Assembly: GCA_951406725.2 (NCBI GenBank)
Contig: OX597824.1
Span: forward strand, 682,001-746,000
Reading direction: 5' to 3'
DNA from: Octopus vulgaris
Taxonomy: Eukaryota
Length of the DNA: 64,000 nt
Shown: piece by piece, positions 4,443-64,000 of the stretch
Position numbering within the stretch: position 1 is the stretch's first letter
Layout of the letters: each line of letters opens with the position of its first letter
Notes under the pieces: generated by a model
Told to the model about the DNA's origin: nothing
Database searches by the model: none
The model's input: only the letters and a program-made list of their open reading frames with translations
Translations under genes and position numbers: made by a program

Positions 4443-4697
4443 GGCGGCGAGCTGGCAGAATCGTTAGCGCGCCGGACGAAATGCCGCTACTTTTAAGTTC
4501 AAATTCCGCCGAGGTCCAATTTCATACTTTCGGGGTCGATTAAATAAATACCAGTTACGCACTGGGGTCGATATAATCGACTTAATCCGTTTGTTTGTCC
4601 TTGTTCGTCCCCTCTGTGTTTTGCCCTTTGTGGGTAGTAAAGAAATAGGTATTTCGTCTGCCGTTACGTTCTGAGTTCAAATTCCGCCGAGGTCGAC
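4443..4697 (+). mobile_element. SINE family A with start of a second body unit
   Basis: Head GGCGGCGAGCTGGCAGAATCGTTAGC, B-box-like GTTCAAATTCC, tail ...GTAAAGAAATAG, then a second GTATTTCGTCTGCCGTTACGTTCTGAGTTCAAATTCC unit. Confidence 0.85.
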
Positions 4698-18491: not shown

Positions 18492-18546
<55 letters not shown>

Positions 18547-18595
18547 TAGATAGATAAGAAAGTTGATTTGTGAAAGCACGTGGTTGAATATATAG

Positions 18596-18944
18596 AAAAT
18601 AGTAAAAAGTGAAAAAACTACAGAAGGCTTACAGGTTAAAAAATATATATATTTGCGTCAATTTGTCTGAAGAATATTAAAATTTTTTTTCTTACAATGA
18701 CATAGTTTAGAAGAAAAGACCGGTTTCGCGTTTAGCTTTTCAAATTTCTTACGACGTTATGTTTATGTTGAACATAAACATAACGTCGTAAGAAATTTGA
18801 AAAGCTAAACGCGAAACCGGTCTTTCTTCTAAATTATGTCATTGTAAGAAAAATTTTTTTAATATTCTTCAGACATATTGACGCAAATATATATATTTTT
18901 TAACCTGTAAGCCTTCTGTAGTTTTTTCACTTTTCACTTTTTAC

Positions 18945-18950
<6 letters not shown>
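18596..18950. repeat. ~355 bp near-perfect palindrome (1-nt spacer at 18770) with a hammerhead-like fold in each arm
   Basis: ...ACGACGTTATGTTTATGTT-G-AACATAAACATAACGTCGT...; arms complementary out to AAATAGTAAAAAG/CTTTTTACTATTT with a few mismatches. Confidence 0.92.
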
Positions 18951-19009
<59 letters not shown>

Positions 19010-20179
19010 GAATATATATATATTCATATATACATATAAATATGTGTATTTCTATGTGCACACACTCACCCTAACACAATCACGTAAGTGTTGCTCTTTG
19101 TACATTATATCTTAAGAGTGTTTCACTGAGTTTAATATGAAATTATATGCAATCTGTTAATTAATGAAGTCGGAATGTAATTAATCCATTAGTTCTGTCA
19201 ATCATAAACTGACATCAGCGGAAAGAAGAGATCGTTGACACTTGGAAATTTTTGTCGGAATGATCGCCGTTATAATGTGATTAAGATCAATGCGTTCCAG
19301 GGTTGAGAATCTCTGGAGCATACCCTTAAGAATAAACGGATCAGCAAGCAGTAATCCTTAAATGTCCCTTAAACCATACTTTACTATCTTAAATAATGAA
19401 GGATAAGCATTAGGCAACGTATTCCTTTAGATACAAGAACAAAGAATCGTCTTGGTTGTTAAATCTTCGTCGATGAAACGTGTGTTTGGTCTGGGTCGGC
19501 GCCTGACTAAAAGTCGAAGAACCATCTGAAACATCTACAGTAGCAGCTACATGAACAACAGCCACAACAACAATGGCAAATACAACGGTCGCTCTTCTCT
19601 TGAAAGTCTTAAAGGCCCAGAATTTCTCAATTCCCACTTTATGTATTTGCAACTACATTAAGATATTACACACACACACACACACAGACACACACACACA
19701 CTCTTACTTGTTTTTATCAGAGGCCGTGACCGCACTGTGACAACGCCATTGGTGTTATTATTTCTTCATTTGATTCCATTTCCACCCCCCTCTCTCTCTC
19801 TCTCCCTGTCTCCTTCATTTGGTGAATGAAGGAATAGAACAACGCTGCCTTCTTTTGCGTTTCTTGCCTGATGTGGGTTTATTTGGTTTCTCAAAAATTT
19901 GTCTAAGTGCTTTTTGTACATATCTACATCTTTGTCTCGTCAGCCTCTGAGGTTTTGCTTTTAGCAAAATATTAAATAATTTTTTCTAGGTATTCTGTGC
20001 TCCTCTGCAGAGAAGACAGTGTCCATGACCATTCACAGGATCTTCGAAACTAGTCGAAGGGAGGAAGCAAGGTATCCTTTAACCCCAGTCTTCCCAACCG
20101 GTGTCAATATGACCCTTGGGGGGCCGTATAGGATTTTGGTGTTAAAGTTTATCTGCAATCAATTGGTTATACTTCTAAA

Positions 20180-24477: not shown

Positions 24478-24759
24478 TATTCTATTGTGTCTGGGGAGAG
24501 TCATTTTCTTTTTGTGCCTTATTATGTAACAAACTCACCGGTAAAATTTTCACTTTTTTCTTATTTTTATTTTCCTAAAATTTTCGTTGCGCTTTGCAAC
24601 CTTTACAATAGTTTTGAGTAAAAAATATTGAAAAGGTTGCAAGACGCAACGAAAATTTTTAGGAAAATAAAAATAAGAAAAAAGTGGAAATTTTACCGGT
24701 GAGTTTGTTACATAATAAGGCACAAAAAGAAAATGACTCTCCCCAGACACAACAGAATA
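24478..24759. repeat. ~280 bp inverted repeat with a hammerhead-like fold near the centre
   Basis: TATTCTATTGTGTCTGGGGAGAGTCATTTTC... vs ...GAAAATGACTCTCCCCAGACACAACAGAATA; short imperfect centre around 24610-24625. Confidence 0.92.
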
Positions 24760-29961: not shown

Positions 29962-30007
<46 letters not shown>

Positions 30008-30018
30008 TATATTTTATT

Positions 30019-30616
30019 TTATTTTATAGAAGGAGTTCTACAGGACTAGAACTGTTTCATTCAAAAGAAATCATCAGGAAGCTAGTAGACAAGAGTTGTT
30101 TTGACATTTATACATTTAGGCAGGTTTAAATGGGTGGTGGTGGGGGACTTTTTTGGGGGGTAGGCATGGCGCAAAACTGTCATTATAAGGGGAGTGGTCA
30201 AAGGAATCGTTGGTAAAGTAGATAATAGAATAAATAAAAGAATAAAAAAATAAAATAAAAAGATAAAAAAATAGAAAAATATTTTTCTATTTATATTTTT
30301 TTATCTTTTTATTTTATTTTTTTATTCTTTTATTTATTCTATTATCTACTTTACCAACGATTCCTTTGACCACTCCCCTTATAATGACAGTTTTGCGCCA
30401 TGCCTACCCCCCAAAAAAGTCCCCCACCACCACCCATTTAAACCTGCCTAAATGTATAAATGCCAAAACAACTCTTGTCTACTAGCTTCCTGATGATTTC
30501 TTTGAATGAAACAGTTCTAGTCCTGTAGAAGCTCCTTCTATAAAATAAATTAATTTACTCTGCTATGTATTGAGTACCTTATTGACTGTGGTTAACCCCG
30601 ACTCAACCCGGGACCT
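30019..30616 (+). mobile_element. Palindromic PLE-type module: 530 bp spacerless inverted repeat (30019-30548) plus unpaired ~70 nt tail, inside (TA)n
   Basis: Centre ATAGAAAAAT|ATTTTTCTAT at 30280/30281; arms differ by only a few changes; each arm has a hammerhead; tail AATAAATTAATTTACTCTGCTATGTATTGAGTAC. Confidence 0.88.
30484..30533 (+). ncRNA. Minimal type I hammerhead ribozyme (intact core)
   Basis: Stem I AGCTTC/GAAGCT; CTGATGA; stem II TTC-TTT-GAA; GAAA; stem III CAG/CTG; GTA cleavage triplet (cut after 30527). Mirror copy at 30034-30083 (-). Confidence 0.8.
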
Positions 30617-31250
30617 ATATATATATACATATACATAGCTATTTATCACTCTATTTATATTATTTATTTATATTTCTGAAATTAAAATTTATTAATTATA
30701 ATAAAACATCGTTGGAAAAAGCAGAATGTTTAACATAGACCTGATGGAAAGAAAATTTTGTGTAAGTGCTTTTCGCTTTTTTCAAACACATGTCTGACAT
30801 AATCCGTATACGCCTACATAAGCTTTTTGTTCCATCGGGAGTTGTTTCTGTGCTTTTTAAAGACATTTTTAAAAATACATAATTGATAAGTTTTTATTTG
30901 AGGAAATCTTTTCTTCAAAAATTGTGGCCGTAGCAAGCAATTTTCTGCACGCGCGCACACACACACACACACGCGCGCGCGCGCACGCACGCACTATATG
31001 TCATGATCTTGACGTTTGTTTTATTTTGTAATTATAATGCATAGTATATAGAGTGAAAAGGTTTCATAGTATATATCTGCAACCCGATCGCTGACGCGTT
31101 TGATCCAGGAGGATGGTGTCAGAAATGACCTTCTCTTCTTAGTATAGAGGAATATTAATAAAAAAACGATGATAAAACGAACAAGAATGTCATGGCTATG
31201 CGTGGGATCTAATGTTCAGTTGTTTAACGGACACATATATATATACTTAC

Positions 31251-34588: not shown

Positions 34589-37153
34589 TTAGGTTGGCAA
34601 CTAAGTTCTCGCTGTGTTTTTTTTAGTTTTTAAAAAGGTTTAATAAAAAAAAGACAACTATGAGGGGCGTTCAATAAGTAATGCCCCTGACCCACTTCCC
34701 ATAGCAGTAGAGCAACGAAACTTGGCACAGTTATTAGTCTTTTTTTACATAGGAATCACCCAGAGTTACGCATTTCTCCCATTGTTTGATGCAGCTCTGG
34801 AGACCGATTTTGTAGAAGACCCCAGCTTGGTCCTCCAGCCACGACGTGACTTCAGAAATCAAGGCTGCATCATCTGGGAAACGCTTTCCTTTCAAAAACA
34901 ACTTCATGACTGGGAAGAGGTGAAAATCAGAGGGTGCAAGGTCAGGAGAGTAGGGGGATGGGGAGGGGTTCATAGCCGCACACCTGTGCTTCTGATCTGG
35001 CGACACGCGAGTTGTGGACCGGAGCGTTGTCCTGCAAGAGGAGGATGCCTTTGCTGATCTTGCCTCGCCTCTTGATTTTGATAGCTTCTCTTAATTTCCT
35101 CAAAAGTGAAGCATAATAGGCTCCTGTAATTGTGGTACCCTTTGCCAGGAAATCTGTCATCACTACTCCGTCATGGTCCCAGAAGACTGAGCATGATCTT
35201 GCCAGCGGAGGGTTGCACCCTTGCCTTCTTTGGAGGAGGTGAGTCACTGTGCTTCCACTGCATTGACTGGGCTTTGGTCTCTGGATCATCGTGATGGACC
35301 CAGGTTTCATCCTGTGTAATCAGTCTTTTGAAAAATTTTGACTTATCTTCTTGGCACATCTCCAAATTCATCCTCGAGCACTCGACGCGTTCTTGCTTCT
35401 GGAAAGGTGTGAGCAACCTGGGAATCCATCTGGCAGACACCTTTTGCATATGCAAATGGTCATGAATGATAGTTTCCACAGACCCGGTACTAATCTTGAC
35501 CTCATGGGCTATTTGGCGAATAGTTATGCGTCGATCTTCCAAAATGGCAGCCTCAACTTGACGGACAGATGCCTCATCAATGGCAGAAGGGGGACGACCA
35601 GATCTGGGAGCTGTTTCCACAGTGTTCCGACCATGTTTTAATTCACGATGCCAGTGTTTTACAAGGTCATATGATGGGGCATCATCACCATAAGTTACTT
35701 TCATTTCATCAAAAGTCTTCCGTGGTGTGCGTCCTTTCAAATACAAAAACCGGATCACTGCTCGACACTCAACAGGCTCCATTTCACATTTGACTCAGTT
35801 CAAACACCTGTAAATCAGAAACCACAATTAGTTCAGAGCTGTAATTTTCCACTCAATCTATAGAGATATAAATAATTGCACATGCAAACTTTCAGCTAGA
35901 TCAAACAACTTCAAGTGGGTCAGAGGCATTACTTATTGAACGCCCCTCGTACTTAATCAATCATGTATTCACCCGTGTTGTTTACAACTTCTTCAAAACG
36001 TTCAACAAGATTTTGGTAAAAATCACCCGACTTCGACTCGAAAAATAGATATCAACCAAGCTCTCAATTCTGCATCAGTATTGAACGAAACTCCGTGCAT
36101 GGCATTTGAAAGAGAACGAAAGAGGTGGAAATCTGTTGGTGCCAAATCAGGAGAGTACGGCGGGTGTGGCAGCACTTCCCAGCCATGTGTTTGAATGGCT
36201 TCCTTGGTCATATTGGCGATATGAGGGCGAGTGTTGTCGTGCAGCAGAAGAACTCCATGCTGCCGATCAGGTCTTTTCTCTTGAATAGCCATGTTGAGTG
36301 GTTCCATCTGTTGAACATAGAGTTCTGCGTTGACCGTTTGGTTCCGTTCAAGCAATTCGTAATGGATAATCCCTTCCCAGTCCCACCATACGCACAACAT
36401 CGTTTTACGTGGATGAAGATCTTGTTTCATGCGCGGTTTCGCTTGTTTACCGGGGCTAAGCCTTTCCTGATGTTGCTTCATTTTGGTGTACAGGCACCAG
36501 TTTTCGTCGTCAGTAACGATTCGGTAAAGAAATCGTTGCCTGTGCCCATGAGCGGTGACTAGAAAGATTGTGACTCGTTGATTTCTGTTGTTATCACTTA
36601 AAGCATGCGGAACTCATGCTCCATACTTCTGAACCTTTCCCATCGAGTGGAGATGCTTCTCTATAGCAGTGTAGGAGCATTCCATTTTCTCTGCCAGTTC
36701 CCTTATCGTTTGACGAGAATTTTCGTACAAAATTTGGTTTAATCGCTTTTCATCGAACTCATCTGGACGGCCAGAACAAAATACGTCTTTGAAGTCAAAA
36801 TTTCTATTTTTGAACTTGGCATACCAATCACGAGCGGTTCTTTCAGCTGTGGAACCCTCTCCATACACAGCACAAATGTCGCGAACAGCTTTTGCGGCCT
36901 TAGAACCTTGATTAAAAGCAAAAAGGTGTCGAAAATGCTCATTTTTCTTAACTTGACATTCCATTTTTAAAGATCTGAAAATAAACAAAAATTAACTAAA
37001 ATTAAGTAGAAAAACAAAACAAAAGCAAAAACAAAATAGATTCCAAAATGATTCGAAAATAGAATTCTCGAAAAAAAAAATAGATTCCAAAATTTAAAAA
37101 CGCAATAAATTCCAAACTTTAAAAAAACTGCAGGTACTTAGTTGCCAACCCAA
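34589..37153 (-). mobile_element. Mariner transposon (outer), pseudogenised transposase ~36963-35953
   Basis: TIRs TTAGGTTGGCAACTAAGT / ACTTAGTTGCCAACCCAA with TA TSD; HTH, TDDENW, CVWWD, LLHDNTRPH, HPPYSPDLAPTDFHLF, ..GEYMID*; stops and frameshifts. Confidence 0.95.
34661..35949 (-). mobile_element. Full-length mariner (inner, nested), transposase 35782-34734 with two frameshifts
   Basis: ~37 bp TIRs (T/C)GAGGGGCGTTCAATAAGTAATGCC.CTGACCCACTT with TA TSD; WIPRLL, ITQDETW, LQDNAPVH and YSPDLAPSDFHLF motifs. Confidence 0.96.
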
Positions 37154-53915: not shown

Positions 53916-54673
53916 ACAAAAGACCTTACCAATATGTTGATGTTCTAAGCTCACACACACACACACACACACGCACACACTTTGTTGGCTCATTGTTCAT
54001 ATGTTGCAATATAATACAACATACATACTTAACCGTACGGTATGTTGACAGGGTATGCAATTTAGAAATATAAACGCCAATAGGTTTTGATAGACATATA
54101 AACATACGTGCATACATAGATATAAACATACATACATAGATACAAACACACACACACATATATACAGACACTTATACTTAATAATGTTTCGTCGGCATGT
54201 GAGATATTATAAATCTACATTTACTGGTACATTTGTATGCTAGTGAGCTATAGGTCGTTTTCTTTGGACTGGATACAAAAGCACTATTATACATGCTTTT
54301 ATTTACTTATATATTTATTTGTGTGTGAATTGAATGGAAGGACATTCGTCAAATGAATCAATTTCGTTATATTTCTGATGTTTATTTCACGGATGGAAAT
54401 TCTACTTTCGACCAATATCCAGGATTTTATGTGCGAAACAGACAAGGAAAAATTTAAAACACCGCTGAAGAATTGAACTCACAATTTCGCTGTTTGATCC
54501 AGCCACACCATCGCCACTTATACAGAGCGTGTGAGTGAGTGTGCGTGCGTGTGTGTGTGTGTGTGTGCGTGTGTGCGGTAGAAAGAAAGTGTGTGATTGT
54601 GTGTAAGTGTGTGTGTGTGTAAAGAGAATGATGCTCGTTTATTAAGCAACGGTTCCGCTATGCTGATGTCAAC

Positions 54674-55532
54674 ATGGTTAATGTAAAAAGTCAAAGTTTC
54701 GGAGCATTTTCAATAATGAAGAAATTTTTGTTGTTGATTGTCAGTTACGATACTTTTGGTGGGGGTACAGGTATGACAGGTGCGGCAGGTGTTGCAGGTG
54801 TTACAGCAACTACTGTAACAATAGCGATGATGAGACCCACAAGAGGCCGAAACTCCAGTGGCTACCATCTCAATAGCAATAACACAAACGGCACCATCAG
54901 CAGGAGCAACAACAAAACTAACAAAAACAAATACAACAGCATCATCATCGCCAACAACAACAACAACAACGGCGTCGATAATAGCACGGGCGATGGAATC
55001 GATCTTGAAACTGGAAGTGTAGGTTACCATTTCGACGGTGACCAGCTGCCCCTGAACCAACGCCAGCAGCCAACTCACAACGACCATCCTTATTCTTATC
55101 ACCGCCAACAGCAAAAACGCCGTCACAACAACAACAACAATAACAGCCATCAGCATCCTCATGTGTACGATGGTCTTTTTGACGATATGGATAACATCAG
55201 CGACATCGGGGACAACAACAACAACAATAGCAACACAAATAATGCACGCAACCAAACAACGTCGACTCGAAACTTTAAGCATTGGATTACGGACATTCGG
55301 ATACCGTTTTACATCATAATCTTCATACTGGCCGTTGTTGGTAACTCTTTGGTCATCCTTACCCTTGTCCAAAATAAGCGCATGAGAACCGTGACCAATG
55401 TGTTTCTGTTAAACCTCTCCATCAGTGACCTTCTCCTGGCAGTTTTCTGTATGCCCTTCACACTAATACCTACCATAATGCAGGACTTCATTTTTGGGAA
55501 AACTGTTTGTGTCATGATACGATATTTACAAG
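54674..55532 (+). CDS. CCKAR: Cholecystokinin/sulfakinin receptor-like rhodopsin-family GPCR, first coding exon (N-terminus, TM1, TM2, start of TM3)
   Basis: IPFYIIIFILAVVGNSLVILTLVQNKRMRTVTNVFLLNLSISDLLLAVFCMPFTLIPTIMQDFIFGKTVC..RYLQ closely resembles CCK receptors; splice donor CAAG|GTAGGT at 55532/55533 (phase 1). Start codon and A/B subtype are uncertain. Confidence 0.9.
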
Positions 55533-56744
55533 GTAGGTGACGCTGATTTCTTTATTTTCTTGCTAAAAGTGGATTGGAACGTAAACTGTGATTTGGTAAT
55601 ACCTTTTTACTTTTTGAATTCTGAGTTCGAATACTACTGGAGTCGGTTTCGCAGTTTATCCTTCTGAAAATAAAAAAATAAAGTACAAGTTCAGAATTGG
55701 GTCGATATAATCGACTGCACACACTACCAAAATTTGAGGCCTTATGTCTATATCAGAAAACAATGTGGGCGTTTGTGTATTTTATTGATTTAATGATTTC
55801 TAAATACATTTTTACATCTGTGGTCTGTAATGTTTTGGGTCAGTTATGTGCACATCTATGACCGGGTCAAAAAAAGGGTCGTTTGTTCATTGGTTTCCCT
55901 GTTAAGTGAAAAGATGCGATATGACATATCTGTCTTCGTTAATCACAATGTTATAATGTTCAAATATTTGATTTAAATGCGTTGTGCTTTGTACATTCTA
56001 TGTTTCGACCAAAGTTTACAGTGAATAGATGTAAATGGTTCTACTCCAGATTTCATGTCCGTAGATGACCAGCTCAAGTATTCAGTTTGTGAATTAAATG
56101 TTGGGAGCAAAATTTTTTTCGAGTTAAAAGGTTTTGCACTAAGAACGCTGAGATATTGCATTAAGAATTAAGGATTAAATTATAAGTGAGTTTTTAAGTT
56201 TGAAGCATTTATTTTTGTACATTGTAAACCTTGATCCAAACATTTAACACCAAACCAATTGTTTGAAGCTTAACTGCTATTCTTTGAAGTTTAATGTAAG
56301 CTTCAAACTCGGTTTTGTTGCTTTTTTGTTTTTGATATTTGAAGCCATTATGTACAGAATCAGGAGGAAAGAGAGAGAAAAAAGAAAGAAAATAATGGAC
56401 AAAAATAGATACGAATGATGGCCATAAAATTTCGTTGCTCTTCCTGAACTTGTTTTCGTTCTCTATTGGATAAAATGCTTTTGATTTTGTTACTGAAAAT
56501 GAAGGATTTATTTGTGGGTATTAAGTGTTTGAGCAACAATTAGAGCCCAACAGTAGAGGCAGAGCGATCTCTGGTAAATAAAGGAAATAATGATTACATT
56601 AGTTTAACATCAGACTGATTGGTAGATCGATATCTACGTATCTATAAGCTGGCGATTTGGCATACTCGTTAGAGCTTCAGATACGATTTCTTGTAGTCCT
56701 TTCGAGCTCAACTTTGTCTTTCAAACTTTTGCGATCGTTTGATA

Positions 56745-57689: not shown

Positions 57690-58470
<781 letters not shown>

Positions 58471-63059: not shown

Positions 63060-64000
63060 AAGTTCGAAAATGCTGCTGTATTATACAATTTTTAATTTTT
63101 ATATATATACATTATAACATGTTTCAGTTCCTGAAATGAACTTTATCAAAAAAAGTTATATATAAAAAGAGACAGCTCATGCCGTCAAACACAAGAAATT
63201 CATTTATAATACACAACGGAGTCAGACATCTTAGAGTTCATGTATAGTTGATATATAGTTCATGTATAGTTGATATATAGTTTGAAGTATATGTTCAAAG
63301 TGTTCGATGCAGTGGCCCACGGTGGCGATACGTATTCAATACAAAAAACAGATCAAAGTGGTGGAAAGCGGTCAATACAGAAGATTGATGTTTCCGAAAG
63401 AGCGAGGAATTCATTTTTACCTTAAGCAAATGTGATGACCCATGGTGGTTCAGCGAACATCCACCATGGGTCATCACATGATAACTGCATGGTATGCAAG
63501 ATTAACTGTAGAACTAGGAATGTCGTCTACAGTATAAGATGCATAGAACGTGCTTGTAAAGACAAGAACATGATATACATAGGTGAGACATCTAGGAACA
63601 TTGCGGAAAGACTAGATGAACATCTGAGACTAAATGACGACCAAAACAGCCCTCCATACCCTACCAACATACCAAGGACCAACATGGAGGCACACTGGGT
63701 CAACTTAACATCCACATTTTATCCAAGCACCCGAAGGATCCAACACTGAGACAAATACAGGCGTGCGTCTTCATAAATGAAACATCCCCAGTACTGAATA
63801 GGAAATATACGTAGAAGGTAGTCATACCCCAATACCCACAGTTTATATATACACAGGTAGAGTTGTTAGTAGGCAAATATATATATATATATATATGTTA
63901 TATGTTGTTAGTATATATATATATATATATATATATTTCTTGTGTTTGACGGCATGAGCTGTCTTTTTTTATATATAACTTTTTTTGATAAAGTTCATTT
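63060..64000 (+). mobile_element. PLE fragment with GIY-YIG endonuclease and inverted terminal modules (runs off the window)
   Basis: CMVC..NCRTRNVVYSIRC..C..IYIGETSRNIAERLDEH (63485-63630); 63134-63199 is the reverse complement of 63935-64000. Confidence 0.85.

Follow-up and report, generated by a model that had tools for sequence, protein, structure and literature searches.

A spacerless hammerhead palindrome in Octopus vulgaris and its probable origin from an abundant Penelope-like element

What kind of event leaves a palindrome with no spacer and a ribozyme towards each outer end, and does the resulting DNA have a function? This question was raised by a locus in the window, i.e., the whole 64,000-nt stretch of the Octopus vulgaris contig OX597824.1 analyzed here, which a preliminary description had read as an insertion of a Penelope-like element (PLE) with an inverted pLTR and no coding sequence. 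The spacerless palindrome proved to be real and was recovered as an inverted repeat at 30014-30553 (96.35% over 548 columns). Its arms (30018-30281 on the minus and 30280-30550 on the plus strand) meet with zero spacer in a perfect 12-bp core whose centre lies between 30280 and 30281 (Table 1). The left arm matches its template from 30018, and additional TTTTA slippage units carry it out to 30012. The unpaired tail on one side and the (TA)n on both sides, which had also been described, were found as well, the former with corrected coordinates; as both flanks are (TA)n, a unique target-site duplication is not readable from them. The arms differ at four places in all: private to the left arm are a slippage-type 6-nt deletion adjoining the centre, a substitution at 30104, and the loss of one G from stem I of its hammerhead, and private to the right arm is a T missing in loop II.

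Table 1. Features of the palindromic locus (positions in the window; a point denotes no strand).
Feature	Position	Strand	Remark
(TA)n target, left side	29968..30011	.	
Inverted short-end arm (pLTR copy)	30012..30281	-	Ends ~23 nt beyond the predicted cleavage site
Type I hammerhead lacking one base of the stem I 3' strand	30034..30083 (30083-30034)	-	
TATA box, left arm, facing left	30106..30112	-	29 nt before the putative +1 at 30083
Head-to-head junction, 2-nt TA overlap	30280..30281	.	5' edge of the T-rich tract
Direct long-end arm	30280..30615	+	3' 336 nt of the (probably Hydra-type) PLE unit
TATA box, right arm	30455..30461	+	29 nt before the putative +1
Putative transcription start (+1)	30484	+	Pile-up of sister-copy 5' ends and untemplated G
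Type I hammerhead	30484-30533	+	GUA triplet 30525-30527
One-sided 65-nt tail between short and long end	30551..30615	+	
(TA)n target, right side	30616..30627	.	

The parent element was traced by searching the right arm against the 2.8-Gb genome, which returned 1,508 candidate matches (40 of these were scored, at 94-100%). Some pLTRs that lie beside frames for reverse transcriptase (RT) and GIY-YIG endonuclease share 99% identity with the right arm, which bears out the reading as a non-coding PLE insertion with an inverted pLTR. All 30 right-arm loci retrieved share one long end, followed by (TA)n in 29 cases and continuing into an ORF in one. Partial tandems of the form pLTR-ORF-pLTR were seen at this ORF-joined locus (L018/L031) and in 20 wider regions; pLTRs lie on both sides of the ORF in L058, L067/L068, and L031, and L058 gave a period of 4,784 nt (~4.8 kb). 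In full units the tail sequence continues into the ORF leader, with the ATG at +184.

The frame at L046 is a single ORF of 713 aa in which the RT precedes the GIY-YIG endonuclease. Its motifs comprise RWR, DKT, YRDD, and Y..YIG/R/H/E/N, a CxCx5C linker (CNCPDKTTC) with CCHH absent, CxxC and CxH in the forms CDLC and CMH, and a single Cys between the GIY and YIG positions. Because Pfam and PDB searches using this protein returned no supporting match, the RT/GIY-YIG assignment rests on motifs and on printed alignments. The Hydra clade of PLEs, whose endonuclease is C-terminal, is described by RWK, DKT, CxCx5C, no CCHH, CxxC/CxH around E and N, insertion into (TA)n, a canonical hammerhead, and a length generally under 3 kb, the last not being a strict criterion (Craig et al., 2021; PMC8557442). 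The octopus element resembles this clade in carrying RT and GIY-YIG in that order in one frame, in DKT, CxCx5C, and the lack of CCHH, in the C-terminal CxxC and CxH, in a canonical type I hammerhead within the pLTR, in its (TA)n targets, and in an inverted 5'-truncated copy. It differs in having RWR instead of RWK (a sister family protein has RWK and DKT), a tail of 65 nt compared with the 30-40 bp described for PLEs, and a unit of ~4.8 kb, lengthened by a microsatellite-rich UTR, where Hydra elements are under 3 kb (PMC8557442). Hydra-1_Obim, a member of the clade, differs in protein and hammerhead as printed in the supplement of that paper. Judged by motifs and by eye comparison with the printed alignments, the parent element probably belongs to the Hydra clade, and the sequence data support the palindrome being a 5'-truncated, two-armed, non-coding insertion from this abundant autonomous PLE.

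An assignment to Naiad, Nematis, or the retrozymes was discarded on account of domain order, motifs, and layout. Animal non-LTR retrozymes are similarly small, non-coding DNAs with type I hammerheads and PLE relatedness (10.64898/2026.07.22.740005; PMC4209133). They differ in being a separate family of tandem hammerhead units independent of an ORF, whereas the window DNA consists of two inverted arms from the pLTR end of an autonomous element.

Two outward-facing intact hammerheads had been described at the locus, and this held for one of them. The plus-strand copy is complete, with the 6-bp stem I (AGCTTC/GAAGCT) and the GUA triplet as described, the core elements CUGAUGA and GAAA, a 3-bp stem II after a U.U pair, and a 4-bp stem III with an 8-nt loop; the minus-strand copy is not intact, as it lacks the stem I base. 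Predicted fold energies were -0.2 kcal/mol for the minus copy, -5.4 kcal/mol for the plus copy, and -7.3 kcal/mol for an unmutated sister copy. Since an Rfam search matched no hammerhead at the gathering threshold or at E<=10 (hairpin-shaped miRNA models appeared, below threshold), the identification as a ribozyme is based on motif and conservation. In 101 of 107 copies, variation between subfamilies fell on N7 and two loop bases and left the stems and core invariant, a pattern that the search anchors partly condition. When two copies were cofolded they paired via loop III (-25.2 kcal/mol), which is not a clear active dimer. The G missing from the stem I 3' strand of the left arm was also absent in 4 of 35 partner arms (L151, L115, L123, and L127); its loss takes the bulge out of a small hairpin and may stem either from slippage or from a systematic error of long reads in palindromes.

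The two arms of the palindrome stop at ends that are fixed throughout the family. The exact short end directly borders (TA)n at 1,836 sites of the genome and the exact long end precedes (TA)n at 4,660. Junctions were sampled from 98 long ends, taken from the first 100 listed, all on one contig. An inverted partner was detected for 70 of the 98, some partners being lost to the filter, and it was the short end in 69 cases and the long end in one; inverted long ends also lie beside ORFs in L060, L073, and L074, where the other end is beyond the DNA examined. In the pairs with both ribozymes readable, the two arms had the same subfamily haplotype in 34 of 35, compared with 27% expected if the arms were independent. 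Arms were joined through overlaps of 0-4 nt or small fillers. Fifty-three junctions were tight (gap <=25 nt), and in 43 of these both arms ended between -1 and +36, where +1 denotes the A that opens stem I (window position 30484); thus the commonest product is a palindrome of ~200 bp centred at the 5' edge of the ribozyme. Neither arm was systematically the longer (a split of 21 to 20); the short arm reached at least 15 nt further 5' in 7 of the 53 tight junctions, and in 5 the long arm lay wholly 3' of the short end. In L093 and L185 the arms of short palindromes were separated by foreign DNA (167 and 71 nt, respectively) resembling the filler of double-strand breaks, and in L067 and L069 mini-palindromes of the same family occur in TA tracts within or beside full copies of the element.

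The 5' ends of the arms were positioned relative to +1. Among the long arms 23 ended at +1 (two of these, L111 and L164, falsely, their subfamily missing among the references), 32 at +2 to +36, and none at -4 to -1; about 25 of the 98 broke off in the T-rich or microsatellite UTR and were treated as alignment breaks and not counted as true ends. Short arms ended at +1 in 16 cases, at +2 to +36 in 34, and at -1 in one. No pile-up was seen at the cleavage site: 0 of 98 long arms began there or within 9 nt above it. Starts that abut TA near the cleavage site were few (18), and the 10 of them that fit cleavage fit TA microhomology as well. A TATA box precedes +1 by 29 nt in 128 of the 131 arms holding the box, over an interval in which 6 of 22 bases differ among subfamilies. 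At junctions of (TA)n with +1, the base in between was G in 35 of 48 cases and, in the other phase, in 5 of 20. This G is untemplated, as the element has T at that position and the target holds no G. Control junctions beginning 2-6 nt further in had G in 1 of 45 distinct cases after nine double-listed rows had been merged (Fisher p 1e-13 and 6e-11). In full-length L1 junctions an extra G marks the reverse-transcribed cap (PMC11702581). From the sharp limit at +1, the untemplated G, and the absence of a pile-up at the cleavage site we infer that capped transcripts begin at the first base of stem I, driven by a TATA promoter within the pLTR, and that the PLE template is uncleaved RNA. The latter accords with the preference for unprocessed RNA of Poseidon, a PLE studied in vitro (PMC11167929). 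In the PLE literature searched, which consisted mostly of papers outside subscription, neither a cap-derived G nor a start at stem I was found reported.

The reading that we consider probable is that both ends of the cut target prime on capped, uncleaved PLE RNA at two internal sites and that the two cDNAs are joined head to head. One end of the cut (TA)n would prime reverse transcription at the fixed upstream (short) site and the other 65 nt further down (long), so that the tail would be the stretch separating the two priming sites; most cDNAs would run off at the cap, i.e., at the first base of the hammerhead, before being joined through 0-4 nt of microhomology. In vitro, synthesis by Poseidon starts at two internal sites of the RNA and extends both strands of the target (PMC11167929). 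The window arms extend 204 nt upstream of the putative +1, for which reason their template was likely a read-through RNA, presumably from a partial tandem, with both cDNAs likely released in its U-rich tract. Weak rU:dA pairing may release cDNA in such a tract. The window copy encodes nothing and is most likely an inert by-product that retains two outward-facing, putative core promoters. In an exact-motif search of the genome for palindromes centred in the T-rich tract the window locus alone was found; a query biased toward that centre also gave L011 and L024, two less strict and independent cases that stop in this tract but are joined differently. To the larger proposition, that the capped transcript starts at stem I, that self-cleavage acts as a cap-removing switch, and that asymmetric priming on uncleaved RNA with mostly cap run-off yields the thousands of 200-bp ribozyme palindromes, we give an even chance.

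The same element could also have acquired its inverted arm by fold-back, through snap-back of the cDNA or self-priming of an antisense RNA, with copying to the short end and resolution there by the endonuclease or TA microhomology. Self-priming has been proposed for palindromic PLE junctions (PMC3846280) and it accounts for identical arms. It also fits the window copy: six tight palindromes have their centre above +1 (L113, L137, L157, L011, L024, and the window copy), and in each the long arm equals or slightly exceeds the short arm in length, as fold-back predicts. Against it, unless later deletion is invoked, fold-back could not give the 5 of 53 tight junctions noted above, whose arms have no sequence in common, nor the short arms of L037 and L076, which hold the ORF opposite a small long arm; the short arms of L093, L176, and L185 themselves reach +1 and then the extra G; and the zero-length loop at the centre of the window copy would be hard to fold. 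Fold-back appears unlikely to us, with the qualification that shared arm haplotypes could also reflect gene conversion between arms and asymmetric junctions could reflect later deletion at palindrome centres. More doubtful still is that the 5' limit marks a stop of the RT or a splice acceptor at the ribozyme edge, with the G added by terminal transferase. The pyrimidines and TAG at +1/+2 do resemble a 3' splice site, joints are favoured by the AGCT palindrome at +1 (seen in 17 of the 114 arms examined), and a second family of this genome shows no G. Yet the G is specific to its position (35/48 against 1/45), the spacing from the TATA box stays fixed at 29 while the bases between vary, and splicing would remove the AG with which the arms start and would call for an upstream exon that is absent.

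An origin of the palindrome as a fold-back artefact of the assembly is barely credible. The centre is bridged by no read contig, its low complexity being skipped: in four DNA read-contig sets compared with 30040-30920 the centre was uncovered and neither locus junction was bridged by 31 letters. The mirrored arm nevertheless stops at the fixed short end of the family instead of also mirroring the tail and flank, the flanks are unlike each other, the arms differ, and short-read contigs from three other studies contain head-to-head joints of the family (a joint 30083-30484 was present in X1, and loose ends behind 30083 in X4 and X5). Very improbable, too, is that the locus is retained as a functional dsRNA or cruciform element, serving as an ADAR/Dicer substrate that silences the family or regulating a neighbour. 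The rod that had been described as hiding the ribozyme is indeed predicted for a transcript of the whole palindrome (264 bp, -448 kcal/mol, stem I pair probability ~1e-52), and the nearest gene-like match is a rhodopsin-family GPCR exon at a distance of 24 kb. For RNA driven by the element the description does not hold: the putative starts at stem I face outward in both arms, so that such RNA would lack the antisense arm, and the rod would need host read-through transcription. Cruciform formation is plausible for such an inverted repeat. The locus is, moreover, one young copy among thousands with 2 differences from its nearest sisters and no sign of selection.

An inverted pLTR with a one-sided tail is a published layout of PLE insertions (PMC8557442; PMC3846280). 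Head-to-head pLTRs with the inverted one shorter than the direct, a palindromic junction, and a tail at one end are shared with Pen2a, Pen2, and Pen3a of Adineta and with Penelope of Drosophila, and the Adineta pLTR also has a TATA box (PMC3846280; PMC2377424). The window copy differs from these insertions in lacking an ORF, and its element differs from Penelope of D. virilis, which has a TATA-less internal promoter; the parts of these accounts compared here do not mention a cap mark or a start at the ribozyme (PMC3846280; PMC2377424). The Poseidon element PAc of Anolis is alike in its tail, which two internal RT start sites define, in the cutting and extension of both target strands, and in copying mainly unprocessed RNA (Frangieh et al., 2024; PMC11167929). 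In vitro it shows no strand preference between the sites (PMC11167929), whereas the window family almost always pairs a short with a long end and has both sites before the ATG, with 2-4 nt of TA resemblance to the target. L1 twin priming resembles the proposed process in the priming of both target ends on RNA, the inverted junction with microhomology, and the extra G (PMC11702581); it differs in that the L1 arms do not overlap in the template, whereas those of the window family usually copy the same stretch from two fixed internal sites, without poly(A).

The window locus itself is an ordinary PLE scar of a known pattern, and a young one given that its arms, private errors aside, are at most 2 changes away from the nearest sister copies; mechanism is added by the junction statistics of the family. 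The origin of PLE inverted repeats and tails and the use of hammerhead-cut or uncut template are put as open questions in the parts of two accounts considered here (PMC8557442; PMC11167929). The thousands of insertions supply exact start sites, a cap mark, and a rule for the ends, and the near-intact frames make the model testable. If the model is true, the genome records the full priming geometry behind these repeats and tails, self-cleavage would cut off the cap 140 nt upstream of the ATG, and the pLTR hammerhead at the cap is a candidate switch for decapping or translation and not a tool for making template. In viruses, ribozyme cleavage can support cap-independent translation (PMC13725137).

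A second Hydra-like family is represented in the window by a 200-bp palindrome at 58210-58435, which has the same layout of short and long end and is centred just above the hammerhead. Its ribozyme has 3,458 exact matches and adjoins ORFs 43-47% identical to those of the window family (protein identity 43%). The 5' limit of this family also lies just above the hammerhead, with 16 of 30 arms reaching <=12 nt, 14 more than 95 nt, and none 13-95 nt above it. No clear TATA box was present, and no extra G was observed in 10 TA-abutting limit junctions (39 distinct sites from the first 100 rows listed). Two more spacerless or near-spacerless palindromes were noted at 18515-19010 and 24478-24759 (513 and 283 bp, respectively), the former lying within microsatellites and having inward-facing CTGAAGA motifs. 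The remaining features comprised Mariner-type transposase fragments at 35174-36613 (minus strand), the exon with the rhodopsin-family 7TM match at 54632-55537 (plus strand, E 6.7e-16), and a GIY-YIG fragment at 63426-63746 (plus strand) with cysteines before YIG, reminiscent of a Naiad-type PLE endonuclease.
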